Shown here: in pieces, positions 2,688-64,000 of the stretch
Layout of the letters: each line of letters opens with the position of its first letter
Numbering within the stretch: position 1 is the stretch's first letter
NCBI GenBank assembly: GCA_021513695.1
Contig: CP084166.1
Coordinates: 896,001-960,000 of the forward strand
Direction of reading: 5' to 3'
DNA length: 64,000 bases
Source of the DNA: Candidatus Heimdallarchaeum aukensis
Lineage (GTDB): Archaea > Asgardarchaeota > Heimdallarchaeia > Heimdallarchaeales > Heimdallarchaeaceae
Position numbers and translations under genes: made by a program
Notes under the pieces: model-generated
Databases searched by the model: none
Told to the model about the DNA's origin: nothing
Seen by the model: only the letters and a program-made list of their open reading frames with translations

Positions 2688-2739
2688 AAGTATTTAGCAA
2701 AAAAGTTTTTTTATATATTTATTGATATTGTTAACTCAA

Positions 2740-8309: not shown

Positions 8310-8344
8310 CTTTTTTTTAAATATTCATTAAAATCTTTTCTTTT

Positions 8345-15333: not shown

Positions 15334-15463
15334 TTATATATTTCTAAAAGAGGAGATAAAATCATTGTTACGCTTACAGACAAGCTATTATGAATCGAAA
15401 TTCTCAAATGAAAGTAATATTATATGTTTTTGTCTATCTTCAATTAAATATTAAATAATTAAT

Positions 15464-41939: not shown

Positions 41940-42058
41940 ATTGTTTGTATCCGAAAAAGATTAGAATAAGAACTTTTTAGGAACAAAGCCCCTGTCTCTC
42001 AAAAATTATTTGCCAATAGATCTATAAATAGAAAAGAAAAAAAGCAAGAAGAAGAAAT

Positions 42059-42338
42059 TATCTTCTAACTATAAACTTCTTGGAGATAAAAAAACCTAAA
42101 CAAAGTAAAACTACAACACAAAAAATGGCTCTAGTAGATAAACCAAATTTACCAGGGTAAGAATCAGCATTAAGAGGGTCTAAACCATTTTGTATCTCTT
42201 AATAATCTGAATAACCATCTCCATCAGTATCAAGATTGTTAGGGTCTGTGTTATAATTGTATTCCTCTAAATTGGTTAAACCGTCATTATCACTATCTTC
42301 ATCTGCATCATGGTTTTTGTTAGCTCTGTTTTAGCATA
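42059..42338 (-). pseudogene. C-terminal fragment of a cell-surface protein: thrombospondin-type-3-like Ca-binding Asp repeats plus a PGF-CTERM-like anchor, with an in-frame TAA; the 5' part is replaced by the CRISPR array
   Basis: Minus-strand translation gives ...DADEDSDNDGLTNLEEYNYNTDPNNLDTDGDGYSDY*EIQNGLDPLNADSYPGKFGLSTRAIFCVVVLLCLGFFISKKFIVRR* (a PG-F/K motif, then a TM helix and basic tail). Upstream it runs directly into the first CRISPR repeat. Confidence 0.55.
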
Positions 42339-42341
42339 CTC

Positions 42342-45300
42342 ATTTTCACACTACTTAGTTCAGCTTAAACCTCGTACTTGCTTGCAGAAGCACCTAGCAC
42401 GTAGTAATTTTCACACTACTTAGTTCAGCTTAAACCTTTCGATAATGATGGTGTTAGTGGTGAAGTGCAAAATTTTCACACTACTTAGTTCAGCTTAAAC
42501 AATCTATCAAGTGTCTCATTTTTTACGTTTCCTAGATTTTCACACTACTTAGTTCAGCTTAAACAATAACGTTTGAACATTGTTCTCGAATTCTTCATAA
42601 ATTTTCACACTACTTAGTTCAGCTTAAACAGTTGATGAAGGTGTGACAAAGTGTGACACTTCGATATTTTCACACTACTTAGTTCAGCTTAAACATTCTA
42701 CTTTTTTCTCAATCAATTTACAAGTTAGAGCGTCATTTTCACACTACTTAGTTCAGCTTAAACAGAACTAGGATCAGTCTCGGTCCATTCAGAAACTCGA
42801 TTTTCACACTACTTAGTTCAGCTTAAACTCCTAAAATAATAACTGATCCTAAGAATCCTGATAAGATTTTCACACTACTTAGTTCAGCTTAAACCCAGAG
42901 TGAGAACGGGGTTATAGGTCAATAATAAAGAAATTTTCACACTACTTAGTTCAGCTTAAACTTTGTTTTGATTTTTCTTTCTTTCAGGATAGCATCAATT
43001 TTCACACTACTTAGTTCAGCTTAAACAAATGGCTAAAAGAACCACAAGAACTTCAAGAAAATAATTTTCACACTACTTAGTTCAGCTTAAACTTTACATT
43101 TATATAACTTCCCCAGAAGATTATATATAATTTTCACACTACTTAGTTCAGCTTAAACCAGCAATGTTGGCACATCTCCCCACTCTACTTTCTCATTTTC
43201 ACACTACTTAGTTCAGCTTAAACATTACTCTTTTTTCTTTACAAAACATTTATATATTATATTTTCACACTACTTAGTTCAGCTTAAACGTTATATTAAG
43301 TGTTAAATAGTTCTCTTTTCCTTCTTATTTTCACACTACTTAGTTCAGCTTAAACGTAAAAAAATGAGTAATTCAGAAGAACATTTTCACACTACTTAGT
43401 TCAGCTTAAACTGAAAACCTTATAGGCTGGCGTGAATACGCAAACCTAATTTTCACACTACTTAGTTCAGCTTAAACACGTTTCCAAGTAAATCTGTTAC
43501 TATTTCAAATTTATTTTCACACTACTTAGTTCAGCTTAAACTGATTTACGTTACCCTCATGTTTGTTATGTTTATTTATTTTCACACTACTTAGTTCAGC
43601 TTAAACGAATTTACTTTACACAATGATCGTGCTGATACTGTTTTATTTTCACACTACTTAGTTCAGCTTAAACACATTGCTTGATATTGGAATTTTATAT
43701 CTTAATATATTTTCACACTACTTAGTTCAGCTTAAACCTGACTTTTTTGGAGAATTTGGTTTCGCTGATAGTAATTTTCACACTACTTAGTTCAGCTTAA
43801 ACTAGAAAATTGTATTCTTCAAACTATACGTATAGATATTCCATTTTCACACTACTTAGTTCAGCTTAAACCTTAAATTATCTTCAAACCAATCAGAATA
43901 ATAAAGTTCATATTTTCACACTACTTAGTTCAGCTTAAACATAAATATCGCTATTTCTCCTTTCTTAACTGTTCTTAATTTTCACACTACTTAGTTCAGC
44001 TTAAACCATAATCTATCATAAAAAAGTCTCCTATATCATAAGTATTTTCACACTACTTAGTTCAGCTTAAACACTATTTTTCCACCTTCTCTTTCTTCCC
44101 ATTCTCTCTTATTTTCACACTACTTAGTTCAGCTTAAACTTTGTACTTCACTGTGCTTAATATCTCTACTTATACTATTTTCACACTACTTAGTTCAGCT
44201 TAAACTTTATCACCCCTCATATATTTATTATACTTCCTAAAATTTTCACACTACTTAGTTCAGCTTAAACCGTACACCCATTCCTTAGGTGTCCAGTCTA
44301 ATACTTATTTTCACACTACTTAGTTCAGCTTAAACTCACCTATATATATGATGTTCTAACACATAAAAATCATTTTCACACTACTTAGTTCAGCTTAAAC
44401 CTGACTTTTTTGGAGAATTTGGTTTCGCTGATAGTAATTTTCACACTACTTAGTTCAGCTTAAACTAGAAAATTGTATTCTTCAAACTATACGTATAGAT
44501 ATTCCATTTTCACACTACTTAGTTCAGCTTAAACCTTAAATTATCTTCAAACCAATCAGAATAATAAAGTTCATATTTTCACACTACTTAGTTCAGCTTA
44601 AACATAAATATCGCTATTTCTCCTTTCTTAACTGTTCTTAATTTTCACACTACTTAGTTCAGCTTAAACCATAATCTATCATAAAAAAGTCTCCTATATC
44701 ATAAGTATTTTCACACTACTTAGTTCAGCTTAAACACTATTTTTCCACCTTCTCTTTCTTCCCATTCTCTCTTATTTTCACACTACTTAGTTCAGCTTAA
44801 ACTTTGTACTTCACTGTGCTTAATATCTCTACTTATACTATTTTCACACTACTTAGTTCAGCTTAAACTTTATCACCCCTCATATATTTATTATACTTCC
44901 TAAAATTTTCACACTACTTAGTTCAGCTTAAACCGTACACCCATTCCTTAGGTGTCCAGTCTAATACTTATTTTCACACTACTTAGTTCAGCTTAAACTC
45001 ACCTATATATATGATGTTCTAACACATAAAAATCATTTTCACACTACTTAGTTCAGCTTAAACCTCATAACAAATGGATAAAGACTATTGAAATCAAGAA
45101 TTTTCACACTACTTAGTTCAGCTTAAACCAATTATTATCGCAACAGCCATCTCAAGATCACCTTATTTTCACACTACTTAGTTCAGCTTAAACGTTTTTG
45201 AATAACAGTCTGTGAAGAGAGAGAAGCAAATTTTCACACTACTTAGTTCAGCTTAAACGTCTTATTTCGTTAAAATCTTCAACAATAGCTTGTTGATTTT

Positions 45301-48300
45301 CACACTACTTAGTTCAGCTTAAACACTTTAGACGTGAAAAATTGGTTAATGGTTTTAGGTGATTTTCACACTACTTAGTTCAGCTTAAACGTAAAGAGAA
45401 AAGAAGAAAGAAAAAGAACGATAAAAGAATTTTCACACTACTTAGTTCAGCTTAAACGAGATATTGCAACATTTTGCTACAAAAATATCTAAAAAATTTT
45501 CACACTACTTAGTTCAGCTTAAACTTTGAAGTATCTGTGATGTCTTTTGTGACTACTCCTGATTTTCACACTACTTAGTTCAGCTTAAACCTTACAGAGG
45601 GAGAATATGCGGGACAATATATTATTACATTTTCACACTACTTAGTTCAGCTTAAACATAGAAGAAGAGCTCATTACAACTTTCCTTTTCCGTGATTTTC
45701 ACACTACTTAGTTCAGCTTAAACAAGCGTCAGTAGCACCTACAAGCGGGACATTCACAAGATTTTCACACTACTTAGTTCAGCTTAAACTCTATTTTATA
45801 TACTTTCTCTAATTCTAAACTTCTACTATTTTCACACTACTTAGTTCAGCTTAAACAGTAGAAATGAAGGGGGGGTTAGGAGCTAGAAAAAATTTTCACA
45901 CTACTTAGTTCAGCTTAAACCAATTCTGTTAATTTGTTTATTTCTTCCCATCTTTCATTTTCACACTACTTAGTTCAGCTTAAACGATAAATGGTACAAT
46001 CGTTTGAACCCTTTTAGAAGAAATTTTCACACTACTTAGTTCAGCTTAAACAAGGTTATCGCCTTTACATTTAGGGTTCTCACAAGTAATTTTCACACTA
46101 CTTAGTTCAGCTTAAACTATTTATGTAAAAGTCCTCTTCATCTATTATTAAACTATTTTCACACTACTTAGTTCAGCTTAAACACTATAACTTTAAGCAC
46201 TTGTTTTACTATATCGAAAAATTTTCACACTACTTAGTTCAGCTTAAACAGTCCGTTCTCGTTTCTTATTTCTTCGTCATCGGTTCTAATTTTCACACTA
46301 CTTAGTTCAGCTTAAACATGATTTTGTATAGTTTCCTCTCTTTATAAATGAAAATTTTCACACTACTTAGTTCAGCTTAAACTCAGCGTTTTGTAGTTCT
46401 ATTTTTCGTAAGTCGTCATATTTTCACACTACTTAGTTCAGCTTAAACCATTTCTCCACCTCTTTTTCATTTCTACTTGTTCTAATTTTCACACTACTTA
46501 GTTCAGCTTAAACTTGCTCTCTAAATATATTGCATACATTCCTTTTCTGATTTTCACACTACTTAGTTCAGCTTAAACTGAACAAACACTCACAATCTTA
46601 TCTAATCTTTCAAACGTATTTTCACACTACTTAGTTCAGCTTAAACAAACTGAAGTCATGTCAAAGTTAGAAGCCCAACTATATTTTCACACTACTTAGT
46701 TCAGCTTAAACGAGCTTTTACTGAAGCAGAACTAAAAAGAAATACCCCAAATTTTCACACTACTTAGTTCAGCTTAAACCATTGAATTCCTCTTTCTTCC
46801 TCTGCACAATAGTGAATTTTCACACTACTTAGTTCAGCTTAAACACGGTGCTCTGAAATGATGGAGTTTGAACAAAAATATTTTCACACTACTTAGTTCA
46901 GCTTAAACGTACAATTATGTTAAATATAGAAGAATAAAAAGGAATTTTCACACTACTTAGTTCAGCTTAAACGATAAAAATGGTAGAAGAGCATAAGAAG
47001 AATGAGCTTAATTTTCACACTACTTAGTTCAGCTTAAACTCTATCCTCCTTTTTTTTGGTTTGCAGTTTATACAAGAATTTTCACACTACTTAGTTCAGC
47101 TTAAACTTCATAGAACTTGATGTTAGGGTTAGGAAAAACCTCATTTTCACACTACTTAGTTCAGCTTAAACTGTAGCTTTGAAAGTTTATCATAGTTATG
47201 TGAGAATTATTTTCACACTACTTAGTTCAGCTTAAACAGATGAAATTTCCGAATTAGTTACTTTATTTCCGTCTGATTTTCACACTACTTAGTTCAGCTT
47301 AAACATTGGAGCTCTTCCCTTGACAATACAAATATTACAAATTTTCACACTACTTAGTTCAGCTTAAACGAACGATTACAGTATAGAACAGACGAATATT
47401 ATTATATTTTCACACTACTTAGTTCAGCTTAAACATCAGCAACTCTTTGCTGGTTCTCAAGAGCTTTTTGATTTTCACACTACTTAGTTCAGCTTAAACG
47501 TGAAAAGTCTCTTGTGTAGGTATATCGTGCTGCGTATTTTCACACTACTTAGTTCAGCTTAAACAGGTTCTCACTTTGGACAAAAGAAGCAAGTTTAGAC
47601 GAATTTTCACACTACTTAGTTCAGCTTAAACTTTCTCCTGAAAGAAGATCGTATGGTAACGAATACGTATTTTCACACTACTTAGTTCAGCTTAAACTCT
47701 ACCACAATGAAGATCATGAGAAGAAACCCACACATTTTCACACTACTTAGTTCAGCTTAAACATTTTTTTCACCCATAATCATTTCCACCCCTCTTTGAT
47801 TTTCACACTACTTAGTTCAGCTTAAACTCAAGGTCAAAATGGGGAAAAAGGTCGAACTATGGTATTTTCACACTACTTAGTTCAGCTTAAACAACGCTTG
47901 TTTTGGGGTTTCACACCCCAAAATCTTATTTTCACACTACTTAGTTCAGCTTAAACTCTGCTTTATCTTCTTCTTTTTCACAATCTCTATGAATTTTCAC
48001 ACTACTTAGTTCAGCTTAAACTTTGCACCTATTATATTTTAAGAGTAAAGAATATAATTTTCACACTACTTAGTTCAGCTTAAACCAGAGAAAGACGCGG
48101 GTTCAATTTCGTATAAGTAAGTAATTTTCACACTACTTAGTTCAGCTTAAACTATCTTCTTTATCTCTTTTTCTACTAACTCATTCTTATTTTCACACTA
48201 CTTAGTTCAGCTTAAACTAGATAAAGGAAGTTTAGATAAAGCGATACAAGAATTGCTAAATTTTCACACTACTTAGTTCAGCTTAAACAAGCGAGTTCAG

Positions 48301-48420
48301 TATCTTCTTTTTCCTCATAGACCTTAATTTTCACACTACTTAGTTCAGCTTAAACATTTATTCCTGCTATACGCAATAGACTTGAAAACGTATTTTCACA
48401 CTACTTAGTTCAGCTTAAAC
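42342..48420 (-). CRISPR. CRISPR array 1: about 92 copies of the 29-bp repeat ATTTTCACACTACTTAGTTCAGCTTAAAC (+ strand) with 35-40 bp spacers; leader at the 48420 end, so it is transcribed on the - strand
   Basis: Perfect periodic repeat of about 66 bp seen directly; the transcribed orientation is GTTTAAGCTGAACTAAGTAGTGTGAAAAT, identical to array 2. Confidence 0.95.
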
Positions 48421-48535
48421 GAAGTTTATTTTCTTTTCTAGCTATATTTTTCTCTCGTTTTGTCACTCACCTTCCTGGTCGACCTCCAATAAGGTATTAA
48501 CTTTATAAATATTGACCAGATACATAAACGTTTAC
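48421..48535 (-). promoter_or_regulatory. Leader of CRISPR array 1 (about 115 bp conserved with the array 2 leader; contains a TTTATAAA TATA-like box and a GGTCGACC palindrome)
   Basis: GAAGTTTATTTTCTTTTCTAGCTATATTTTTCT...TTTGTCACTCACCTTCCTGGTCGACCTCCAATAA...CTTTATAAAT is about 90 percent identical to the reverse complement of 60858-60971. Confidence 0.6.
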
Positions 48536-48569: not shown

Positions 48570-50075
48570 TTATTTTTTTGCTATTTTCTCTGCAATTACA
48601 GGATGTTTTTCGTTTACTGCATACCAGAATTTTGCCTTTCCTTTTAAATTTGGTTTTATTATTATCCATCCCTTTTTTTCCATATCTACTAGGATTCTTG
48701 GTTTATTCATTTTGAATTGATTTATGTTTATTTTTTTATGATCATGGTATTTATTTTCTTTTTGCATCCATTCATTTATTTTCCTGAAGCTCCCTGCAGC
48801 TAATCCACCTATCAAGATTGACCCATCCATACAGAGTTTGTATTCTTTTGGTTTTTCCAGTACTGACATGTATTTATCTATCATAAAGTCTAAAATTATT
48901 TCATGTTCTCCCTCTGGCCTTTCGAACATTTTTTCTTTTGTTCCTTCTTTAATTATTTTATTTTTTAGTTTGTCTAGTTGACTATTTTTTTCAAGAAGCA
49001 ACCTATTTTTTTCATGTGGGTCCCATAAATTTATTTTCTCAATTAATATTTGTTCTAAGTTTTGATACTCTCTTTCAATTACTAATTTTGTACTTATTTT
49101 CTTGAATATTTTTCTCTGGTAATTTTGTGGCAGGTAGTATGATCTTCTTCCTATAGAGTGATATAGAATTGGATTTAGGGTATTAACTATATAGTTTACT
49201 AGAGCTATTTTTTCTTCCATGTTTAGCTCCGAAAAGATATTTTCTTCTATTATTGATACTATTCTTTGTATTAGAGTTTTAATCATGAAAGCTGTTAGAA
49301 TAGCTTTTTTTACTCTCTTTTTGAATAATTCATTTTTCTTTTTGTAATGTACTATAGCATAAGTATCAATTCCGAGGGATAAAACGTCTATTTTTTCCTT
49401 TGAGCTATATATCTTTTCTATGTTTTTTTCTTCTAACTTTTGAAAATGAACACTAGGTAATTCAATTATTGAGATGACATTTGAAGATTCTAAATAAATA
49501 TTACTAAATTCTTTAAAGAATGCTCTAAGCAAACAAAATTTTACCTGTTCATTTTTCTTTTTTTTGCCTTTTTCATTTGTAAATATTTTTATTATTTCCC
49601 TTCGTAAATTTTCTAAACTCTCTTCTTCCAGAATTTTTTCACTTAAAATTACTTTCTTTTCTACTTCAGCTATTAATGATGGATAAATGTTTATCTTTTT
49701 TAATCCATTTACGATTTTAACTACTGTTCTTGGTTCATTCCAATAAACAGTTCTTGTTTCAATTGGAATAAGCGGTCTTAAAGGCACTCTTCTAAAAAAT
49801 AAATATTTTTTAGCGTAATAGTACAGATATGAATCATTAGTCAATTTCAGAAAAAGACTTGAGTAGTATGGAATGAAAATGTCGAACTTTTTTCTACCTT
49901 TTCTTATTACCATTTTTATTCTTTTTTTGAACTCTGTTTCTGATTTAAGGAAAGAGAGTTCTTTTCTAATCTTTTTTGAATAAAGGATTTCTGGAATGGC
50001 ATAAAACTGATGGAAAGAGATTTTTATTGTATTCATTTTATTCTCCCTAATACCATTTTTGAAGAGTAGTATCAT
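48570..50075 (-). CDS. Uncharacterised 501-aa Lys-rich protein encoded inside the CRISPR-cas locus (between the array 1 leader and cas6)
   Basis: Long ORF with coding periodicity; it overlaps the upstream ORF by 29 bp (operon); no recognisable catalytic motif. Confidence 0.5.
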   Translation of the reverse strand: MILLFKNGIRENKMNTIKISFHQFYAIPEILYSKKIRKELSFLKSETEFKKRIKMVIRKGRKKFDIFIPYYSSLFLKLTNDSYLYYYAKKYLFFRRVPLRPLIPIETRTVYWNEPRTVVKIVNGLKKINIYPSLIAEVEKKVILSEKILEEESLENLRREIIKIFTNEKGKKKKNEQVKFCLLRAFFKEFSNIYLESSNVISIIELPSVHFQKLEEKNIEKIYSSKEKIDVLSLGIDTYAIVHYKKKNELFKKRVKKAILTAFMIKTLIQRIVSIIEENIFSELNMEEKIALVNYIVNTLNPILYHSIGRRSYYLPQNYQRKIFKKISTKLVIEREYQNLEQILIEKINLWDPHEKNRLLLEKNSQLDKLKNKIIKEGTKEKMFERPEGEHEIILDFMIDKYMSVLEKPKEYKLCMDGSILIGGLAAGSFRKINEWMQKENKYHDHKKININQFKMNKPRILVDMEKKGWIIIKPNLKGKAKFWYAVNEKHPVIAEKIAKK

Positions 50076-52022: not shown

Positions 52023-52745
52023 TTGTTGATGAGGATTCTTATTTCTTTTAAGCCTAAATTTGATGTTTCAGAGGATGCCATAGTAAAACATGATATTCAA
52101 GGATTTATTTATAATCTAATCAAGTACAAAGATACTAAAGTTCTTTTAGATCATGATAAACATCATTTCAAATTTTTTTGTTTTAGCGATATTTTTCCTC
52201 AAGGTGATTTTAAAAAAGGAGAGACAAAAAATCTGTTAATTAGTTCTCCTACAAAAGAGCTAATAAATTTAATTGATGATAATCTTCCTCTTGAGAAATC
52301 CTATAGATTAGCTGGATTAACCATCGAAGTTATATCCAAAAAAACTTTTAACTTTCCCACAAAAAACAACTTTATTTCTGGAAGTCCTATAGTTTTATAC
52401 AAAGATAATACAAAGAATGAATATTTTAGCTTTAAGAAACACAAAAGTCTTAATTTCTTTCTCAATAGATTACAAGAAAATGCTGTGAAAAAGTATCAAA
52501 TTTACTATAACGATCCTGAATTTCAATTGTCTGGAAAGATTTTTGATACAATTGAATTTAGAAAGGAGGTTGCAGTTCACAACAGGAAACAAGGAAATGA
52601 ATTTATTCACATTGGCACTCTTTGGAAAAAATTAGAAAAAGAATACATAAAGAAAGAAGAAAGAAGGTTTTATCATTTTATCATGGAAAGTGGTCTTGGC
52701 GAAAAAAATAGTATGGGTTTTGGTTTTTTAAATCCTATTCAATAA
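52023..52745 (+). CDS. cas6: Cas6 (crRNA endoribonuclease), type I-B
   Basis: 240 aa; C-terminal glycine-rich loop GLGEKNSMGFGFL; first gene of the cas operon. Confidence 0.85.
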   Translation: MLMRILISFKPKFDVSEDAIVKHDIQGFIYNLIKYKDTKVLLDHDKHHFKFFCFSDIFPQGDFKKGETKNLLISSPTKELINLIDDNLPLEKSYRLAGLTIEVISKKTFNFPTKNNFISGSPIVLYKDNTKNEYFSFKKHKSLNFFLNRLQENAVKKYQIYYNDPEFQLSGKIFDTIEFRKEVAVHNRKQGNEFIHIGTLWKKLEKEYIKKEERRFYHFIMESGLGEKNSMGFGFLNPIQ

Positions 52746-52850
52746 ATTGTATTTTTTTGTTTAAATTTTACAATTAATTTTTGAAAAAACAACCTTTAAA
52801 ATATTTTTTTCTTTCTGTTTTACCAATAAAACTTAATTATTGGTGTTCCA

Positions 52851-54863
52851 TTGATACAAGCAGTTAAACAATTAGGAAAAAAAATACGAGAGATTTATCC
52901 TGAAAAATATGCAGATTTTGTCGATGTCTTTATTGCAGATGTAAAAACAGATTTATTTTTGATAGAATTAGAGAAAAAAGAAAACGATTTTCAATATAAT
53001 AAAATTGTTTGGATGGAACCAAAACCTGAGATAATTCCTAAATTACTTTATAAAGACTTTGGGAGAAATATCAAAATTAGACCTGCGCCTGTAGCTAAAG
53101 TAGGTTATTTCCAGACCAAATCAAAAGATGGTAAAATTTCAGAAAAAGAGCTCGAGAATCACAAGAAGAAAATAAAAAGCGAACTAGACGCTTCCATAAT
53201 TAAATGGTTTTCTCAAGAAATTGATAGAAGAAAAGAAGGTAGTGAAAAAAGAATTTTCTTGGAAAATATAAAAAAAGGAATACTCAATTCATTAGATAAT
53301 ATAATTACAGATATTAAAGAACAGATGGATTTTTCAGGTCAAAATAAGAAAAAAAATGAAAAGTGTATAATAACACTACAATTTTTGGAAGGTGGTAAAG
53401 AATATTACCTTCGTGACTTTGATATTTTTTCTAAAGCTTTTTTAGATAAAAACTTGGAACGTTACGCAAATAAATGGGGAATAACTTCTAAAGGAGAAGA
53501 TGCTGTTTGTTCATTATGTCATGAGAAAAAAGAAGAAGTCTTTGGTTGTGCCTCAGACATTTTTAGCTGGTACACTCTTGATAAAAGAGGATTTGCACCA
53601 TTCTTTGATCAGACTTTAGGATGGAAACTATTTCCTGTCTGTAAAGAATGTATTATTGATCTAGAGATAGGCAAAAAATTTGTTTTAAACAATCTACGTC
53701 TTAAGTTTAATGATTTTACTAACTTTTTCTTAATTCCAAAGCTTCTAAATCCTAAAATTATCGATAAGGGTATTTTGAGAAGATTTGAGCTTTTCAAGAG
53801 TATTTCAGTTGAAAATAATGAACTATTGGAAAAATATAGGAAAAAAGAAGAGATACTTAAGAGAGCTACAAAAAGCACAATTGAAATGATCGGAGAACAA
53901 GAAAAAGATAACAATTTTACGCAGAATATGATTTTCCTGAATTTAATTTTCTTTGATGATGATGGAAAATCTATAAAGATTCTACGTAGTATTGAAGATG
54001 TTCTTCCTTCCAGGTTTGTTCAGATAACTGATGAGCTATATAAAATAAATAAGGATGAAACTTTGGACAGCTATAAAATTTATTTGCAATTAGTTTTAAA
54101 CATCTTATATCTGGAAAAAGAAAGTAAACGCGGTTCTACAATTGATAAAAAGTATTTATCTACAATCGATTCTCTTCTTAAAGATGTACCTTTAGATTAT
54201 GATGTTCTTATAAAGGATATCGCTTCAAGTTGTCAAGAGATAGTAAAGGAAAGTTATCTTTCTGATAACAATCTAAAAAAAATAGCTAAAAAAATTACAA
54301 ATATTGACAAAGGTAATAATGACGTAGAATTTGGCAACTCTTATGAGTTAATAATTAATGCTTATTTAAAATATTTAGTTTTATTAAAAAGATTAAATCT
54401 AATCCAAAAATGGAGGGTATCAAAAATGATTGATAAAACAGGACTTGAAGAAGAAATATCAGATAATAAGAGTCGACTAAGCATCTTAAATTCAATATTT
54501 AATGCTTATTCTGACTTTTTTGATCAACCCATTATTCGTGCTGTCTTTGTATTAGGCATTTTGACTAAGCTATTGATGAATATTCAGTATCGCAATCTCA
54601 ATGCTACGCCTTTTTTCAACAGGTTAAATGGGTTAAAATTGAATAAAAGAATAATAATCAAACTTGTTTCCGAAGTAAAAGGAAAACTAAGTGAATACTC
54701 TATAGCTTATGTTGATTTAGAAGAAGAGATGGCTAAATACTTCTTAGAAGCTGGTCACAATTGGCTGGTTTCTGATGACGAACTTAGTTTCTTCTTCGCT
54801 TTGGGAATGAATAACGCGAGTAAATTTAAATCAGAAACAAAAGAAGGTGAAGAAAATGAGTGA
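52851..54863 (+). CDS. cas8b: Cas8b (Csh1/Cst1 large subunit), type I-B
   Basis: 670-aa protein between cas6 and cas7, with Cys-containing region CSLCHEKKEEVFGC...CKEC; its position and size define the I-B large subunit. Confidence 0.75.
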   Translation: MIQAVKQLGKKIREIYPEKYADFVDVFIADVKTDLFLIELEKKENDFQYNKIVWMEPKPEIIPKLLYKDFGRNIKIRPAPVAKVGYFQTKSKDGKISEKELENHKKKIKSELDASIIKWFSQEIDRRKEGSEKRIFLENIKKGILNSLDNIITDIKEQMDFSGQNKKKNEKCIITLQFLEGGKEYYLRDFDIFSKAFLDKNLERYANKWGITSKGEDAVCSLCHEKKEEVFGCASDIFSWYTLDKRGFAPFFDQTLGWKLFPVCKECIIDLEIGKKFVLNNLRLKFNDFTNFFLIPKLLNPKIIDKGILRRFELFKSISVENNELLEKYRKKEEILKRATKSTIEMIGEQEKDNNFTQNMIFLNLIFFDDDGKSIKILRSIEDVLPSRFVQITDELYKINKDETLDSYKIYLQLVLNILYLEKESKRGSTIDKKYLSTIDSLLKDVPLDYDVLIKDIASSCQEIVKESYLSDNNLKKIAKKITNIDKGNNDVEFGNSYELIINAYLKYLVLLKRLNLIQKWRVSKMIDKTGLEEEISDNKSRLSILNSIFNAYSDFFDQPIIRAVFVLGILTKLLMNIQYRNLNATPFFNRLNGLKLNKRIIIKLVSEVKGKLSEYSIAYVDLEEEMAKYFLEAGHNWLVSDDELSFFFALGMNNASKFKSETKEGEENE

Positions 54864-55785
54864 AATAATAAAAAATAGGTCTGAAATAGTTTTTTTGTAT
54901 GATGTTAGAGACGGTAATCCAAATGGTGACCCTGCTGATGGGAACAAGCCTAGGATTGATGAAACCAGTGGTATCAACATAGTAACTGATGTTCGACTAA
55001 AGAGAACAATAAGAGACTATATAAACAAGGTTAAAGGCCATGAAATTTTTGTTAAAAAGATAGAAGACTTAGAAGGGATAATCCAAACTTCTAAACAACG
55101 AGCACAAGATTTTCAGAATGATCCAGATAAGATTCTTTCTGAATGCGTGGATGTCAGGATGTTTGGGGGAACTATACCAATAAAAATTTCTGATAAGAAA
55201 GATGGTAGCATTACTTTTACTGGTCCCGTTCAATTCTCTATGGGGAGATCTCTTCACAGAGTCGAGTTAAAACATGTTAAAGGAACAGGAGCTTTTGCTT
55301 CTTCAGAAGGAAAGAAACAACAGACTTTTCGAGAAGAGTGGATACTACCTTATTCACTAATAAGCTTTTATGGTGTAATAAATGAGAATGGTGCAGAAGA
55401 TACACAGTTAACCGAAGAGGATGTTAAGCTTCTTGTAGAAAGTATCTGGAATGGGACTAATGATTTGTTAACAAGAAGTAAGATGGTTCATAGATCTAGA
55501 GTTCTTTTACAAATTATTTACCAAGAGAAAAACTTCCATGTCGGAGAGCTTGACAAAAAGATTAAGATGAAGGCTAAAGTTGAAGATGAAAAAATTAGAG
55601 GTACGGATGACTACACTCTTGAATTTGATAATTTTGTAGAAGCGATCAAAAATAACAAAGAAAAAGTAAAAATTATTCGTTACAAAGTAGATGACAGTAT
55701 TAATCTTGAATTTAATGGTGACAAAAAGACTATAGAAGAGATTCTAAAACTTACAGAATGTGAATTGGAAGAGCTGAAATTTTAA
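54847..55785 (+). CDS. cas7: Cas7 (Csh2/DevR-type backbone subunit), type I-B
   Basis: N-terminal FLYDVRDGNPNGDPADGN signature of Cas7 family proteins. Confidence 0.9.
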   Translation: MKKMSEIIKNRSEIVFLYDVRDGNPNGDPADGNKPRIDETSGINIVTDVRLKRTIRDYINKVKGHEIFVKKIEDLEGIIQTSKQRAQDFQNDPDKILSECVDVRMFGGTIPIKISDKKDGSITFTGPVQFSMGRSLHRVELKHVKGTGAFASSEGKKQQTFREEWILPYSLISFYGVINENGAEDTQLTEEDVKLLVESIWNGTNDLLTRSKMVHRSRVLLQIIYQEKNFHVGELDKKIKMKAKVEDEKIRGTDDYTLEFDNFVEAIKNNKEKVKIIRYKVDDSINLEFNGDKKTIEEILKLTECELEELKF

Positions 55786-55791
55786 TAATAG

Positions 55792-56553
55792 GTGAGACTA
55801 ATGCTAAAACAGGAAGCTGAAGTAAGAGAAGTTTTAGTTTTCGATATTTGGGGTGATTTTGCTCATTTTAAGAAAAACTATGCTACAACTTCAGCTCTTA
55901 CATACAATTTTCCTCCTCGAAATACTATTGCAGGAATAATTGGAGCAATTTTAGGTTTAAAGAGGGCAGATTTTCCTGAAAAATTGTCTCCTGAAAAGAG
56001 TTACATTGGTGTTTCAATACTCTCTCCAATAATGAAAAAAACTATTACAATGAATCTTATTCACACTAAACCTTCTGAATCACTTATATTCAAAAATAAT
56101 TTTGGTTATTTCAAAAAGCACACACAGATTCCTTTTCAATTTTTATCTAATATCTCATTTAGGGTGTATTTTTCAACTGACGATGAGGAAATGTTTTCAC
56201 AACTATATACATATCTTAAAAACCATAAGTCTCATTATACAGTTTCGTTAGGTTTGAGCAATCTACTTTGTAACTTTAAGTTAATAGGAAAAAAAACAAT
56301 AAGAAAAAAAGAAGTAGCTAACAAAGAAGTAGAGGTTTTAACAGTAATTCCGATGAACAAAGTCAAAGAAGTAAATGTGTTTAAAAATCCTAAAATGAAT
56401 ATCGAGAATTTACCCAGATTTATCGATAGTTCAAGAACAGTTCATGAATACCAGGAAGTTCTATCAAGCATGGATCCAGAAAAACCTCTTTTTGTAGTCC
56501 CTAGAGATACCTTATGGGAGATTGAAAATGACAAATTCATCAGTTTCCTCTGA
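55792..56553 (+). CDS. cas5: Cas5 (type I-B)
   Basis: 253 aa; N-terminal VLVFDIWGDFAHFKK...PPRNTIAGIIGAILG typical of Cas5. Confidence 0.85.
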   Translation: MRLMLKQEAEVREVLVFDIWGDFAHFKKNYATTSALTYNFPPRNTIAGIIGAILGLKRADFPEKLSPEKSYIGVSILSPIMKKTITMNLIHTKPSESLIFKNNFGYFKKHTQIPFQFLSNISFRVYFSTDDEEMFSQLYTYLKNHKSHYTVSLGLSNLLCNFKLIGKKTIRKKEVANKEVEVLTVIPMNKVKEVNVFKNPKMNIENLPRFIDSSRTVHEYQEVLSSMDPEKPLFVVPRDTLWEIENDKFISFL

Positions 56554-58990
56554 AAATCAGATAAACATTTTTTCTCACCCTAATAAAAATATTTTAGAAC
56601 ATTTAAGTGAGACAGAAAGAGAAATTCTAAATATCCTTGAAAAACTACAGCCCAATTTTTCAATCAAAAAAAACATTATTATCGAAATCGCTAGAATTTT
56701 AGCTTTAACACATGATATTGGAAAATGCACAATCTTTTTTCAAGAATATCTTCATTCAAACGAAGAAAATAACTTCAAAAAATTGGGAGAATATCAAAGT
56801 TCAAAACTTCACCACCATGGACTAATCTCTGCAGTTTTTACCTATTATACACTAAAGAAACTTTTAAATTCAAATAATGAGCAGTTCTATGACCTGAATA
56901 GTGGATATAAAGACCTATTACCTCATATAGGCTTTTTAACAACAAAAAAACATCATGGTAATTTAGGAAATTTTTATGATGAGATTATTATAAACAGAAC
57001 AAGTGAAGAAAAGATTAGACAGCAACTAGAAAATTTCCATCCCCAATTCGAAAATGTTGTCGAATTCATAAGAAATAAAATTAATATAACAATTTCATTT
57101 AATGAATTTTCAGAATCCTTTGGAGATTTAATTGATGAATTAGCTTTCAGTGATGAACTATTATTGAACTATTATGAAAATAGTAGAGATTGTGAACTTT
57201 ATCTATTTACTTTATTTTTACATTCAATCTTAACAGATGCAGATAAAACTTCTGCTATTGGTGTCTCTAAGCCTATTCTTCCATTTATTTCTTCTAACAA
57301 AATTATCAAAAACAGGAAAAAAATAATCCAGAAAAAAGGAAAAAAGACATATTTAGATAACTTAAGAGAGAATATTTACAAAGAAGTAATTGCAAAGATA
57401 GAAAAAACACCTTTAGATAACAAAATATTTACATTAACAGCTCCTACAGGTTCAGGAAAAACTCTCACAGTTTTTGAAGCAGCATTTAGATTGAAAGATA
57501 AAATTTTAAGGAGAACTAATATAGAAATGAAAATTATTTATTGCCTTCCATTTCTCAGCATCATTGATCAAAATGCTCACATTATTAACCAACTGCTAGA
57601 TCCTGACTCAGTTAAGTTTCTTCCTTCAACTCAACTACTAATTCATCATTACTTGGCAGAAGTTCAATACAGCTCTTATGAAGAAGATTATACCTTTGAT
57701 GAAAGTAGATTCCTAATTGAGGATTGGCATTCTTCAGTTATTATTACAACCTTTATTCAGCTTTTTCATAGTATTTTTACCAATAGAAATAGCAAGATAA
57801 GGAAACATCACAATATACAAAATTCTATCATAATACTTGATGAAGTTCAAAACATTCCTCATAAGTATTGGTTATTGATCAGGGAAGTTTTTCAAAGATT
57901 ATCAGAGATCGAGAATGTTTATATCATTTTTACAACAGCCACACAGCCTAAAATTTTTAGTTCAGAAGAGAAAGTTGTTGAATTACTTGAAAATAAGGAA
58001 AAATACTTTGAACAGTTAAGTAGAATTACTTTAGAACCAAAAATTGATAACAATATCACACTCAACGAGTTTATTTTAGAAATTAATGAGAAACTGCAAA
58101 AGAACAGTGACAAGGATATTCTAATTGTTGCGAATACAATCCGAGAAGCTCAAGAGATTTTTGACAGTATTAATTTTAAAAAAGATCATGATAAGTTATT
58201 TTTCCTTTCAAGTCAAATAATCCCTAGAAAGAGGAAAGAAAGAATTGAAGAAATAAAGAGAAAATTAGAAAAAGAAAAAGATAAAAGAGAGAGTAATGAA
58301 AAACGAATTATTTTAGTAACTACCCAATTAATTGAAGCAGGAGTAGATATCGATTTTGATATTGTAATAAGAGATTTAGGACCAATAGATTCTATAAATC
58401 AAGTAGCAGGAAGATGTAACAGAAACGGAGAAGAAGAAAAGGGAAAAACAATTGTTTATTCAGTCATTGACCAAAAAACAAAAAGATTATTTGCTTCATA
58501 CATTTATGACGGATTTATTTTAAGTAAAACGAAGGATGTTCTAAAAAACAAAAGAGTGATAGAAGAACAAGAATTCCTCAAAATCATTGACGATTATTAT
58601 TTAAGCATCGAAAAGACAGGGGACACAATAACCTCCACTAATATACTAGACTCTATCTTTAATTTAGAGTTTGATGAAATAGGTAAATTTAGCCTGATAG
58701 AAGAAAGAGCTGATCAAGTTCCTGTTTTTATTGAGATAGATAAAAAGGCAAAGGAAATTTGGGCAGAATATTTGGAAATATGGAATATTAAAGATTGGAA
58801 GAAAAGAAATGAGAAATTTATAAAAATCAAAAATGATCTCTATAGTAACTTAATTAACGTAGACAAGAAAAAAATCAAAACAATTGAGCAAATAAAGGGT
58901 TATTATTATATCGATTTTCAAAATGCTAGGAACTACTACGACAATGAAAAAGGTTTCATTGGGAAAGAAAAAGATGTTATTTTATTATAA
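56522..58990 (+). CDS. cas3: Cas3 (HD nuclease + DEAD/DEAH-box helicase fusion)
   Basis: HD-domain motifs LTHDIGK and HHHG; helicase motif I LTAPTGSGKT and motif II IILDEVQ; 822 aa. Confidence 0.9.
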   Translation: MKMTNSSVSSENQINIFSHPNKNILEHLSETEREILNILEKLQPNFSIKKNIIIEIARILALTHDIGKCTIFFQEYLHSNEENNFKKLGEYQSSKLHHHGLISAVFTYYTLKKLLNSNNEQFYDLNSGYKDLLPHIGFLTTKKHHGNLGNFYDEIIINRTSEEKIRQQLENFHPQFENVVEFIRNKINITISFNEFSESFGDLIDELAFSDELLLNYYENSRDCELYLFTLFLHSILTDADKTSAIGVSKPILPFISSNKIIKNRKKIIQKKGKKTYLDNLRENIYKEVIAKIEKTPLDNKIFTLTAPTGSGKTLTVFEAAFRLKDKILRRTNIEMKIIYCLPFLSIIDQNAHIINQLLDPDSVKFLPSTQLLIHHYLAEVQYSSYEEDYTFDESRFLIEDWHSSVIITTFIQLFHSIFTNRNSKIRKHHNIQNSIIILDEVQNIPHKYWLLIREVFQRLSEIENVYIIFTTATQPKIFSSEEKVVELLENKEKYFEQLSRITLEPKIDNNITLNEFILEINEKLQKNSDKDILIVANTIREAQEIFDSINFKKDHDKLFFLSSQIIPRKRKERIEEIKRKLEKEKDKRESNEKRIILVTTQLIEAGVDIDFDIVIRDLGPIDSINQVAGRCNRNGEEEKGKTIVYSVIDQKTKRLFASYIYDGFILSKTKDVLKNKRVIEEQEFLKIIDDYYLSIEKTGDTITSTNILDSIFNLEFDEIGKFSLIEERADQVPVFIEIDKKAKEIWAEYLEIWNIKDWKKRNEKFIKIKNDLYSNLINVDKKKIKTIEQIKGYYYIDFQNARNYYDNEKGFIGKEKDVILL

Positions 58991-59002
58991 CGAAATGATG
59001 GA

Positions 59003-59031
59003 GTTCAAGCTAAACTAAGTAGTATGAAAAT
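59003..59031 (+). repeat. Orphan degenerate CRISPR repeat (26/29 identity to the array repeat) between cas3 and cas4
   Basis: GTTCAAGCTAAACTAAGTAGTATGAAAAT compared with GTTTAAGCTGAACTAAGTAGTGTGAAAAT; same orientation as array 2. Confidence 0.6.
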
Positions 59032-59073
59032 TAGAGGTAGAAGTAATGGTATTAAATTCTTGGTGAAATTGTA

Positions 59074-59604
59074 ATGGTGGAGTTAAATCATATTAGCATT
59101 AAGAATACTGATTTTGCAGTAACTGGAGTAATGGTTCAATATTTATTTTCATGTAAAAGAGAATTGTGGTTTTTTACCAAAAAAATTGATTTCAACAAAG
59201 AGGATCAGAACATTCAAATTGGCAAAATAATACATGAAACAAGCTATAAACGAAATAAAAAAGAGTTTGACTTAGGTTTTGTAAAATTTGACTTAATTGA
59301 AACAAAAAACAGGATAATAATTTCTGAAATAAAAAAATCTTCAAAACTTTTGGAACCTGCAAAAATGCAACTTTTGTATTATGTTTACATTTTAAGTAAA
59401 ATAACTGAAAAAGAAGTAGAAGGAGAAATTAGAATTCCAAAAGAGAGAAAAAAAGTAAAGATTCAATTGCAAAACGAAGAAGAAAAATTAATTCAAAAAG
59501 CTTTGAGAGAGATTAAAGAAATTTCCTTACTGGAAAGACCTCCCAAAGCAGAAAAAAAATTTTATTGTAAGAATTGCGCTTATTACATTTTTTGCTGGGT
59601 TTGA
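59074..59604 (+). CDS. cas4: Cas4 (RecB-like nuclease with C-terminal Fe-S cysteine cluster)
   Basis: 176 aa; N-terminal Cys (FSCKREL) plus C-terminal CKNCAYYIFC; position between cas3 and cas1. Confidence 0.85.
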   Translation: MVELNHISIKNTDFAVTGVMVQYLFSCKRELWFFTKKIDFNKEDQNIQIGKIIHETSYKRNKKEFDLGFVKFDLIETKNRIIISEIKKSSKLLEPAKMQLLYYVYILSKITEKEVEGEIRIPKERKKVKIQLQNEEEKLIQKALREIKEISLLERPPKAEKKFYCKNCAYYIFCWV

Positions 59605-60591
59605 GTGAAAAAAATGAAAGATTCTATTTACATTACAAAGGAAGGAGTAATTTACAGAAAAGATAATACTATTGTTTTTCAAAATCAAGAACAAAAGCAT
59701 ACTTTACCTATCGAAGCAGTGAAAGATATATATTGTATTGGCAAAGTAACTATAAGATCTGGAGCAGCTTATCAACTAATGGAAAAAAGGATTCCTGTAC
59801 ATTTTTTCGGAAAATATGGACACTATAGAGGAACATTACAACCAAAACAAGATCTAATCTCTGGAGAAGTAATAGTAAAACAAGTTCAACATTATACTGA
59901 TTACATAAAAAGAATAAAAATTGCAAAAGAGATGTTTAAAGGAATAAAACACAACATTCTCTGGGTTCTAAAATATTACAAATCAAAAAGAGATATAGAA
60001 GATGTAGTTGAAAAAATTGAACATGTTAATATTCAAGAAGAAATATTAAAAATAAATACATTAAGAAGTTTAGAAGGTCAAATATGGGAACTTTTCTATC
60101 AAGCTGCTGATACAATTTGTCCTTCATGGGGTTTTAGAAAAAGGACTAGAAGGCCTCCTTTAGATGAAGGAAATGCACTAATATCTTATGGAAACTCAGT
60201 TCTATATGGAAAAACAATTTCTGAAATATTCAAAACTTATCTTCATCCTGCAATTTCGTTTATACACGAACCAAGTGAAAGAAGGTACTCTTTAGCCTTA
60301 GATCTAGCTGATATTTTCAAACCAGTAATAGTTTTTAGAACAGTCTTCAGGCTTATAAATCAGAAAATAATTTCAAAGAAAGATTTTGAAAAAGAAGTAG
60401 GAGTCCAAATTTCAGAAAAAGGAAAAAAAGTATTTATCACAGAATTAGAAAAAACATTCACAACTACAGTAAGACATCCAAATCTGAAAAGAAATACCTC
60501 ATACCAGTTTTTGATAAGACTTGAAGGACTAAAAATAATGAAACATGTTCTAGGAGATAAAAAATATGAAAGCTTTAAAGCATGGTGGTAG
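59605..60591 (+). CDS. cas1: Cas1 integrase
   Basis: 328 aa; start abuts the cas4 stop; length and position between cas4 and cas2 consistent with Cas1. Confidence 0.85.
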   Translation: MKKMKDSIYITKEGVIYRKDNTIVFQNQEQKHTLPIEAVKDIYCIGKVTIRSGAAYQLMEKRIPVHFFGKYGHYRGTLQPKQDLISGEVIVKQVQHYTDYIKRIKIAKEMFKGIKHNILWVLKYYKSKRDIEDVVEKIEHVNIQEEILKINTLRSLEGQIWELFYQAADTICPSWGFRKRTRRPPLDEGNALISYGNSVLYGKTISEIFKTYLHPAISFIHEPSERRYSLALDLADIFKPVIVFRTVFRLINQKIISKKDFEKEVGVQISEKGKKVFITELEKTFTTTVRHPNLKRNTSYQFLIRLEGLKIMKHVLGDKKYESFKAWW

Positions 60592-60857
60592 AGATATACG
60601 TGATAATCGTTTATGACGTGGGAGAAGAAAGAGTAAATAGAATACATAAATTCTTGAAAGCATATTTAACATGGACACAAAATTCAGTATTTGAAGGAAA
60701 AATAACAAAAGCAACATTAGCTCAAATAAAAACAGGAATAAAAAGCATAATAAAAAAAGAAGTCGATTCAATAAAAATATTCAAAATAAAAGGAGAACAA
60801 TGGATGAATATTGAAATAATGGGAGTAGAAAAAAATAAGTTTCAGAATATAATTTAG
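60582..60857 (+). CDS. cas2: Cas2
   Basis: 91 aa; N-terminal MVVEIYVIIVYDVGEERVNRIHKFL typical of Cas2; overlaps the cas1 stop. Confidence 0.8.
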   Translation: MVVEIYVIIVYDVGEERVNRIHKFLKAYLTWTQNSVFEGKITKATLAQIKTGIKSIIKKEVDSIKIFKIKGEQWMNIEIMGVEKNKFQNII

Positions 60858-60971
60858 GTAAATCGTAAGAATCAGGTCGACATTTATAAAGATGATACAT
60901 TATTGGAGGTCGACCAGGAAGGTGAGTGACAAAAGGAAAGAAAAATATAACTAGAAAAGAAAATAAACTTC
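60858..60971 (+). promoter_or_regulatory. Leader of CRISPR array 2 with ATTTATAAAG TATA-like box and two GGTCGAC elements
   Basis: Sequence directly after cas2 is the reverse complement of the array 1 leader (about 90 percent identity over about 115 bp). Confidence 0.6.
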
Positions 60972-63900
60972 GTTTAAGCTGAACTAAGTAGTGTGAAAAT
61001 TTCTTTTGTTCTTTGGAGGAGGACAACCTTCAACGAGTTTAAGCTGAACTAAGTAGTGTGAAAATCAGTCTGGGTATATTTTATGCCCCTCAATATTTTG
61101 AGTTTAAGCTGAACTAAGTAGTGTGAAAATTGCTGGCTGGACTGGGCATAATTTCCAGAAATCTCTGTTTAAGCTGAACTAAGTAGTGTGAAAATAGTAA
61201 AATAGCTTTTATTTATTCCGTAGTAATATATGGTTTAAGCTGAACTAAGTAGTGTGAAAATCGCTATTGTAGTCGAGTTAGAAGATGGAGAGATTGAGTT
61301 TAAGCTGAACTAAGTAGTGTGAAAATAAATATATTGTGATGAATTGGATAAAAGAACTAAAAGTTTAAGCTGAACTAAGTAGTGTGAAAATAAACCAGAA
61401 GGAATGACTTTCATTCCTGCTACAGGTTTAAGCTGAACTAAGTAGTGTGAAAATTAATCAGAATAAAATGCTCATAATCATTGGTATAATAGTTTAAGCT
61501 GAACTAAGTAGTGTGAAAATGCAAAGCAATGAAAGGAGTGTTTTGTCTGGTGAGGTCGTTTAAGCTGAACTAAGTAGTGTGAAAATCAATCAGATTTGAG
61601 GGACAAAATAGTCCCGTTGGGACGTTTAAGCTGAACTAAGTAGTGTGAAAATACTGAAGAACAAGAAAAGAATATAAAAAGAACCAAGGTTTAAGCTGAA
61701 CTAAGTAGTGTGAAAATTAATATATCTATCGACTTGAACAAATTAGTTGAAGAGGGTTTAAGCTGAACTAAGTAGTGTGAAAATGGTAAATCCCCCAACA
61801 ATCCTGAAAGTGTTAAATTTGTTTAAGCTGAACTAAGTAGTGTGAAAATATTGTTCTTTTTTCAAATCATCTATTTTTTTTGCTCGTTTAAGCTGAACTA
61901 AGTAGTGTGAAAATTACAATTGACAGTAGTCACACACAAACCATTTAGGTGTTTAAGCTGAACTAAGTAGTGTGAAAATAAAATTCTTCGTGTGTCATAT
62001 AAAAGGCATCATCAGTTTAAGCTGAACTAAGTAGTGTGAAAATAGATCAGAGAGACTTGGGTAGAGTTAGTGAGATCTATGTTTAAGCTGAACTAAGTAG
62101 TGTGAAAATTACATATTTTTGAATAATTGAGACATGCATATGACGTTTAAGCTGAACTAAGTAGTGTGAAAATACAGCTCTCAACTGATAAGAGCGTTCT
62201 TTTTCATTGTTTAAGCTGAACTAAGTAGTGTGAAAATTTGTCAAAGTGTTTGTATAAGTGTCAATATAATCTGTTTAAGCTGAACTAAGTAGTGTGAAAA
62301 TATGTCTTTAGAGACTTGTTGAAGAGCAGGATTGTCAGGTTTAAGCTGAACTAAGTAGTGTGAAAATCAAGCATTTCTGCGATAACGACACCAGAACCAT
62401 TAAGTTTAAGCTGAACTAAGTAGTGTGAAAATTAAATGTGGTCGTGTATCGTTATATGGTGCTCTGAAATGTTTAAGCTGAACTAAGTAGTGTGAAAATA
62501 TATCTCCAGAGTGCCAAATTTCAACATTTGACACGTTTAAGCTGAACTAAGTAGTGTGAAAATCCAATTAATTAAGCCGCTGTTTCAAAAGGTGGTTCAG
62601 TTTAAGCTGAACTAAGTAGTGTGAAAATTTCGATGGATCCATAAAGGTAAATTAGGATCCCAAAAGTTTAAGCTGAACTAAGTAGTGTGAAAATAAAAAG
62701 CCAAGAGATGGATTGATGAACAAAAAAACCGTTTAAGCTGAACTAAGTAGTGTGAAAATCAGTCTGGATAGAGTTTGTGCCCATTAATATTCTGAATTGT
62801 TTAAGCTGAACTAAGTAGTGTGAAAATAGAGTAGGATTGTCAGATTGATCCATAAGGTATAGAAGTTTAAGCTGAACTAAGTAGTGTGAAAATGGTGACG
62901 CCACAAGCGAGGCATTCCCAAGCTCAATAGTTTAAGCTGAACTAAGTAGTGTGAAAATGGATTAAAAAATATGTCTCCTCTCGCTCGTTACGGGTTTAAG
63001 CTGAACTAAGTAGTGTGAAAATAATATCTTTAGATACCTGTTGAAGAGCGGAGTTGGTTTAAGCTGAACTAAGTAGTGTGAAAATCCAAAATTCTCGACT
63101 GCCTCTAAAGCAAATGAGAAAGTTTAAGCTGAACTAAGTAGTGTGAAAATTTTTTTTTCTGTCTGTTATTTCTTCTACTTCTTCTGTTTAAGCTGAACTA
63201 AGTAGTGTGAAAATTTATGATATGCGAACGTTTGCATGTTTGCGAATACAAGTTTAAGCTGAACTAAGTAGTGTGAAAATAGAAAACGTTTGGCTCGAAT
63301 GGATTGGTTTCTATGTCGTTTAAGCTGAACTAAGTAGTGTGAAAATTTGCTAAACCCGCCGCATAATCTTTTTTCTTTTATTTTGTTTAAGCTGAACTAA
63401 GTAGTGTGAAAATTAACCTGCAGAAATATCTTGTAAAATCTTGAATTCAACCTTGTTTAAGCTGAACTAAGTAGTGTGAAAATTAGTTTTGATTTGTAAA
63501 AGACGGATATCCACTTGTTGTGCTGTTTAAGCTGAACTAAGTAGTGTGAAAATATCAACACGTGGGTTTCTATCCAAATCTAATCCTCTGTTGTTTAAGC
63601 TGAACTAAGTAGTGTGAAAATAGCGATATAAAGAAGTTATCCTTTTCAGTATAATAAGGTTTAAGCTGAACTAAGTAGTGTGAAAATAAATTTCTAAAAA
63701 TATTGAAAGGTCAAAATCAAGATTGTTTAAGCTGAACTAAGTAGTGTGAAAATCTAACATGTGTAAGATTCATTGGGCCAATCCAAATTGTTTAAGCTGA
63801 ACTAAGTAGTGTGAAAATCTAAACACAATTTGCATGATGCCATGCTTGTTTTTTGTTTAAGCTGAACTAAGTAGTGTGAAAATGTTGGTTGTGTATAGTG

Positions 63901-64000
63901 TAAATAGATTTTTCTGATTGGGTTTAAGCTGAACTAAGTAGTGTGAAAATTTCTACTTCAAAGAATGAGCACCAATAGTTAAACCAGTTTAAGCTGAACT
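60972..64000 (+). CRISPR. CRISPR array 2: at least 46 copies of GTTTAAGCTGAACTAAGTAGTGTGAAAAT with 35-40 bp spacers, leader-proximal end at 60972, continues beyond the window end
   Basis: Perfect periodic repeat seen directly; transcribed on the + strand away from cas2. Confidence 0.95.

Follow-up and report, generated by a model that had tools for sequence, protein, structure and literature searches.

A ten-unit tandem block in a type I-B CRISPR array of Candidatus Heimdallarchaeum aukensis is probably a genuine segmental duplication

We analysed a window of 64,000 nucleotides (positions 896,001 to 960,000 of contig CP084166.1) of Candidatus Heimdallarchaeum aukensis, which has two CRISPR arrays with a cas operon between them. 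Array 1 (42342..48420, minus strand) is composed of 93 repeats of 29 nt and 92 spacers of 27-42 nt, and has its leader at the right end. Its repeats are identical in 93 of 93 cases, with no mismatch at all. The repeat reads ATTTTCACACTACTTAGTTCAGCTTAAAC on the plus strand and GTTTAAGCTGAACTAAGTAGTGTGAAAAT on the minus strand, and has the form GTTTAAGC...GTGAAAAT in the direction of transcription; none of the Rfam CRISPR-DR families matched it at gathering score. The array 1 leader (48421..48530, minus strand) has about 100 nt conserved with the array 2 leader in inverted orientation, and the leader regions of the two arrays share an exact inverted match of 50 nt that includes the first repeat. 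Because the stretch of roughly 100 nt just to the right of array 1 recurs as its reverse complement directly before array 2, array 1 is read on the minus strand, leftward from about 48.5 kb. Array 2 (60972..64000, plus strand) has at least 46 repeats, which are the reverse complement of the plus-strand repeat of array 1, and it continues beyond the window. The spacers of the two arrays have a mean length of 36.7 nt.

The cas operon is of type I-B and spans 52023..60857 on the plus strand, as measured by the longest ORFs. Its genes all match NCBIfam models above cut-off and are all encoded on the plus strand. Specifically, they are cas6 (52023-52745), cas8b/csh1 (52851-54863), cas7/csh2 (54847-55785), cas5b (55792-56553), cas3 (56522-58990, matched for both core and HD domains), cas4 (59074-59604), cas1b (59605-60591), and cas2 (60582-60857). 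An identical cas gene order is found on an independent Logan contig. By these matches, the locus between the arrays is a complete type I-B system including the adaptation genes cas4-cas1b-cas2. The window's protein accessions include UJG41610.1 for Cas2, UJG41608.1 for Cas4, and UJG41597.1 for CobN. The interval from array 1 to cas6 hosts two more genes on the minus strand, which encode a putative membrane protein and a winged-helix protein. The operon itself holds one solitary repeat. We considered this repeat as a regulator acting via a pseudo-spacer and rejected the idea, as it has no target of at least 12 nt within the window.

Array 1 contains a block of ten spacer-repeat units that occurs twice, head to tail. 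Copy 1 occupies 43738..44400 and copy 2 occupies 44401..45063, both on the minus strand and each 663 bp in length. The initial annotation had described two 663-bp blocks of ten units in the same order; its coordinates and the spacer starts it quoted are exact, and the exact alignment it proposed as a check, run here as a direct comparison of the two halves, gave zero mismatches in 663 bp. The ten units have the same order and orientation in both copies, and the block spacers are, in order, 36, 40, 40, 37, 37, 38, 37, 36, 36, and 36 nt long. The identity between the copies extends 29 nt leftward, through the trailer-side bounding repeat (43709..43737, minus strand), and just 2 nt rightward past the repeat. 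A self-comparison of the whole window at k = 40, which is independent of the pairwise check, returned the same structure as a single 694-bp direct repeat with an offset of 663. The spacers bordering the duplicated block are located at 43674-43708 and 45064-45099. Both breakpoints of the block thus fall in repeats, which makes the duplicated segment an integer number of units, namely ten. As the identity of the copies continues through the bounding repeat at 43709-43737, the crossover may sit anywhere within a repeat.

We then compared the complete spacers of both arrays with each other, 92 from array 1 and 45 from array 2. The ten block spacers are the only exact duplicates, array 2 having none within the window, and the next-closest spacer pairs outside the block are at least 9 edits apart in both arrays. 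Chance is excluded as the origin of the ten-spacer recurrence. Counted from the leader, copy 2 comprises spacers 52-61 and copy 1 comprises spacers 62-71 of the 92, and hence the block lies in the array's older half. The only sequence that a hypothetical single-copy array would lack is the back-junction (44336..44436, minus strand), where block spacer 10 is followed by a repeat and block spacer 1. Its diagnostic 69-mer is TGTTCTAACACATAAAAATC-ATTTTCACACTACTTAGTTCAGCTTAAAC-CTGACTTTTTTGGAGAATTT, that is, TGTTCTAACACATAAAAATCATTTTCACACTACTTAGTTCAGCTTAAACCTGACTTTTTTGGAGAATTT when written as one string; the corresponding 69-mers at the left and right flank junctions are GGAATTTTATATCTTAATATATTTTCACACTACTTAGTTCAGCTTAAACCTGACTTTTTTGGAGAATTT and TGTTCTAACACATAAAAATCATTTTCACACTACTTAGTTCAGCTTAAACCTCATAACAAATGGATAAAG, respectively.

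The spacers were also inspected for their targets. Scans of viral contigs with block spacers or 24-25-nt pieces of them gave no match, and the whole array gave none among phage records. Among plasmid records the whole array gave a lone match, which we judged to be due to chance. There are no self-targets within the window, where the longest matches are at most 19 nt. Likewise, the paper describing this genome reports no viral matches for its spacers (PMC8813620).

How this sequence was assembled bears on the reading of the block. The genome, that of Ca. Heimdallarchaeum aukensis PM71, is a circular MAG of 3,081,793 bp (Wu et al., 2022; PMC8813620), obtained from an enrichment where this archaeon accounted for 4-7% of 16S reads. 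Seven CRISPR-Cas systems were reported across the two Heimdallarchaeum genomes of that study; spacers were de-replicated there at 100% identity, and the duplication goes unmentioned (PMC8813620). The assembly was made with metaSPAdes from PE150 Illumina reads at k = 21 to 99, scaffolded by LRScaf in two passes on Nanopore reads of MDA-preamplified DNA, one run of which was also PCR-amplified, and polished with Pilon at 346x (PMC8813620). The caution of the initial annotation that an assembly artefact should be considered is thus justified, since the array was built by short-read graph assembly and Nanopore scaffolding on MDA-amplified DNA. As an exact repeat of 663 bp is longer than a 150-nt read, the copy number of the block rests on depth or paired-end heuristics. 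The back-junction itself does not call for the long reads that the initial annotation named as a check, since any 150-nt read running from the last part of spacer 10 through the repeat into spacer 1 is diagnostic; copy number is to be had from depth. The absence of mismatches says nothing about the age of the duplication, because a de Bruijn graph merges both copies into one edge, which is then output twice.

We also looked for the locus in other assemblies and in relatives. Exact searches for block spacer 10 and for the 29-nt repeat found neither in the genome and JGI metagenome contig collections. The exact sequences of the trailer-side binding protein (start at 41873) and of Cas2 are present only on Logan contigs of the runs SRR15988954, SRR15988958, and SRR15988959, which belong to DNA sample FW4588. 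Being built at k = 31, these contigs break off, as is to be expected, in the shared leader or at the terminal repeat. An exact protein look-up of the ORF at 43677-43790, which crosses the left block junction, returned no record. The flanking binding protein has a 98%-identical counterpart in ENA, whose contig runs out 203 bp upstream of that gene and so falls short of any array. The related Heimdallarchaeaceae MAG GCA_054387415.1 has the same repeat beside cas2, and none of its nine spacers is common to the window; a lone 15-nt match to the window was attributed to chance (22 of 39 positions).

We consider it probable that the block is a genuine tandem segmental duplication in the type I-B array, carried by a substantial part of the population or more. 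In array 1, the repeated (k-1)-mers at k = 55, 77, and 99, three of the k-mer sizes that metaSPAdes used for this genome, all fall inside 43709-45065. As no repeated (k-1)-mer exists beyond the block at k = 55-99, a single-copy array would assemble as a linear path, with nothing at the edges of the block to make it break or branch, and the second copy therefore needs a read-supported back-edge that runs from block spacer 10 via the repeat to block spacer 1. This pattern argues for a real back-junction, and we infer that the junction exists in cells and not just in the assembly. That the organism instead has one copy of the block, the second having arisen by untrimmed joining of two contig paths that each contained it or from chimeric long reads that misled the scaffolder, with Pilon leaving the result in place, seems unlikely to us. 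The combination of metaSPAdes on PE150 reads, two rounds of LRScaf with MDA- or PCR-amplified Nanopore DNA, and Pilon speaks for such an error. So do the exact identity of the two copies, which a graph assembler yields by construction, and the fact that none of the Logan assemblies of the three runs spans the array. Moreover, direct chimeras of MDA favour identical same-strand sequences less than 10 kb apart, as in a CRISPR array (PMC9984789), and erroneous CRISPR loci have been reported for over a third of the complete genomes of M. tuberculosis (PMC7968741). MDA chimeras, however, are individually random and unique (PMC9984789), and should fail a support threshold. LRScaf as published merges overlapping contigs (negative gaps) and fills positive gaps with N, with no long-read sequence pasted in (PMC6902338); a scan of the window found no N, and the region has no residual long-read errors, all repeats being perfect. 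An artefact would furthermore demand two separate failures, one in the overlap removal of SPAdes and the other in the contig merging of LRScaf. Whatever probability lies beyond a real duplication and an artefact reflects chiefly doubt over copy number or over how frequent the duplication is in the population. The junction could be real and the structure as written not be that of every cell, the second copy being present in part of the population or of the genome copies, or the block being present in three or more copies of which one traversal of the graph loop was reported. We hold this to be quite improbable. It fits a genome that is a metagenome consensus from an enrichment, an exact repeat whose copy number is not directly readable from short reads, and the expected instability of duplicated spacers (PMC11472070); against it, the sequence bears no sign of such variation, and the array has no other ambiguity. 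This reading overlaps with the one we prefer, as the mechanism is shared and only frequency or copy number differs.

A real duplication could in principle have come from the adaptation machinery, and Cas1-Cas2, together with Cas4, would then have taken the same ten spacers again from the same invader. The intact adaptation module cas4-cas1-cas2 would allow this. Acquisition, however, inserts single spacers at the leader-proximal repeat, whereas the block lies 52-71 spacers away, and each of its ten spacers comes back with the same ends and length, in unchanged order and orientation. Real repeated sampling looks different in this very genome: array 2 has pairs of similar spacers (for example 61066 versus 62760, and 62302 versus 63023) that are shifted, divergent by 9-10 edits, and non-adjacent, which is repeated sampling of one protospacer region. 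We therefore rejected an origin by Cas1-Cas2 on the position of the spacers and their ordered exact recurrence, and regard it as next to impossible. Repeat slippage or recombination in place of Cas1-Cas2 acquisition had already been proposed in the initial annotation, and the distance of the block from the leader and its ordered, repeat-bounded run support that proposal. It is also very doubtful, in our view, that the duplication is real and not neutral, block amplification being for this archaeon a recurrent and selectable way of raising the dose of particular crRNAs against an active mobile element, maybe aided by multiple genome copies. If that were true, block copy number should vary frequently among the arrays of Heimdallarchaeum populations.

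For the genuine duplication that we prefer, we infer that one of the 93 identical 29-bp repeats paired out of register with another that lies ten units, or 663 bp, away. Misaligned pairing of repeats fits the ordered ten-unit block, the breakpoints in repeats, and the location far from the leader. The nascent strand may have misaligned at a replication fork, or unequal exchange may have taken place between chromosome copies, whether sister or homologous; as the products of slippage and unequal exchange are identical, both routes fit the sequence equally. Resolution would leave the ten spacer-repeat units in two head-to-tail copies with Cas1-Cas2 uninvolved. Lovett (2004, as cited in PMC11472070) is said to have ascribed rearrangement at direct repeats to slipped misalignment or unequal sister exchange. 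Such rearrangement yields a tandem duplication with short identical direct repeats at its bounds, and the reciprocal product is the block deletion common in arrays. The mechanism is characterised in bacteria, and we know of nothing on it in Asgard archaea. For simple slippage, an offset of 663 bp is towards the demanding extreme when the continuous homology is no longer than 29 bp. An excised circle was also considered as the source of the back-junction and rejected, since it would fail to replicate and to attain assembly-level coverage.

The expected consequences of the duplication are modest. Transcription of array 1 is predicted to proceed from the leader, at about 48.5 kb, with Cas6 processing the transcript, and ten crRNAs would thereby gain a second template. 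No new immune specificity would be added, and the functional effect is probably small. Since the two copies form a direct repeat of 663 bp (694 bp with the shared flanks), the block should readily collapse to a single copy.

Duplicated spacers are known from other arrays. In CRISPRCasdb, duplications affect about 3% of spacers, and one or more candidates occur in 162 of 333 array groups; simple duplications account for 86% of complex events there and are ascribed to repeat misalignment, and the same process is thought to yield the much commoner block deletions (PMC11472070). The CRISPR Comparison Toolkit assigns duplication an event type of its own (PMC10457644). Internal segmental duplications had been called uncommon in the initial annotation; this calls for a qualification, as spacer duplications in general are found in about half of the array groups surveyed, though a ten-unit block is at the long end. 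If duplication lengths follow the geometric distribution with a mean of 2.7 units that was fitted to deletions, ten units would be in about the top 1.6% (PMC11472070). The events reconstructed with SpacerPlacer in CRISPRCasdb resemble the present block in being non-polarised, located mid-array, and ascribed to replication misalignment, and differ from it in block size, their mean of 2.7 units again being a fit to block deletions, versus ten here (PMC11472070).

Another of the closest likenesses is with the DR locus of the M. tuberculosis complex, where multi-unit blocks are likewise duplicated with breakpoints in repeats (PMC7968741). In M. tuberculosis, DVR14-20 is duplicated in tandem between spacers 20 and 21, a block of seven units, and a duplication of 25 DVRs is also on record; CRISPRbuilder-TB recognises such events by a junction of later spacer, repeat, and earlier spacer and by doubled k-mer depth (PMC7968741). 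The M. tuberculosis complex cases rest on many strains, on inheritance consistent with lineage, and on evidence at the level of reads, whereas the present one comes from one metagenome-derived genome and is known from its assembly. Besides, the type III-A locus of the complex no longer acquires spacers, whereas the array described here belongs to a type I-B system that is apparently active.

The block duplication is hence an ordinary and already documented kind of array rearrangement, which differs from known cases only in its host, an Asgard archaeon, in the subtype I-B, and in the length of the block. To our knowledge, it would, if real, be the first example of repeat-mediated CRISPR block duplication in an Asgard archaeon. 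Models of array evolution already include this class of event. The practical relevance of the present case is limited, and it opens no long-standing question. The locus offers a handy spot check of accuracy for a reference Asgard genome that was built from short reads and MDA-derived long reads. If the duplication is real, the spacer count of this genome is inflated by ten, and any array chronology or strain typing of Ca. Heimdallarchaeum aukensis must count the block as one event.

The type I-B cas operon (52023-60857, plus strand) is bracketed by arrays 1 and 2, whose conserved leaders of about 100 nt (48421-48530 and 60860-60971) are inverted relative to each other. The two arrays are transcribed outwards in opposite directions. 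In the Logan short-k assemblies, the breaks fall within the leader sequence common to both arrays. On the minus strand, the stretch from the leader of array 1 to cas6 contains two large genes (48570-51525), both of them retained on the same-strain Logan contig. One encodes a 501-aa protein whose sole match, a weak one, is to a WxPxxD-family membrane protein; the other encodes a 492-aa protein with winged-helix HTH matches to HTH_24 and Mga, and weak ones to Sta1 and HVO_A0114. The two proteins may be regulators associated with the CRISPR-Cas locus. In SRR15988958, one of three runs with this organism, the ABC ATPase gene adjoining the array is broken into pieces of 76 and 157 aa (2588-3378 of the Logan contig); both the window and the remaining runs give a product of 263 aa. 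The split is due either to an assembly error confined to this run or to a variant present in the sample.

Within the operon, 83 bp separate the stop of cas3 from the start of cas4, and this gap hosts a lone 29-mer (59003-59031) that resembles the array repeat, matching it at 26 of 29 positions. The related MAG GCA_054387415.1 has a solitary repeat-like 29-mer at the equivalent cas3-cas4 location (3463-3491 of its sequence), with 28 of 29 positions matching, whereas the stretch from the repeat to cas4 differs between the two genomes. For the sequence downstream of the repeat, no partial target was found within the window. The solitary repeat may serve as a Cas6 cleavage site, splitting the operon transcript into interference and adaptation parts; other possibilities are a regulatory element derived from CRISPR or the leftover of an array.

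The spacers of both arrays are 34-42 nt long, except for one of only 27 nt in array 1 (43356-43382). Array 2 contains pairs of spacers that are alike but not identical, for example 61066-61101 and 62760-62798, and 62302-62338 and 63023-63056. The members of these pairs are shifted and 9-10 edits apart, and look as though homologous sites in related invaders had been sampled independently. Such pairs contrast usefully with the ten spacer-repeat units of array 1, which are duplicated exactly as a block.

Away from the CRISPR-Cas locus, two near-identical copies of an IS element of about 1 kb, differing by one indel, lie in direct orientation at 8344-9350 and 15463-16470. The element encodes a DDE_Tnp_1 transposase; in the second copy, a frameshift divides the coding sequence into two ORFs (15495-15890 and 15868-16440). 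The copies enclose glycosyltransferase and epimerase genes spanning roughly 6 kb, in a composite-transposon-like layout.

On its trailer side, array 1 ends in a repeat (42342-42370) that is perfect, with no sign of degeneration. Immediately adjoining it, within the stretch 42040-42370 that covers both, is the decayed 3' fragment of a minus-strand gene for a surface protein. The fragment has, in order, calcium-binding DxDxDG-type repeats, an in-frame stop, and a PGF-CTERM-like hydrophobic tail. This arrangement suggests that the surface-protein gene was truncated by the array or by the CRISPR-Cas island.
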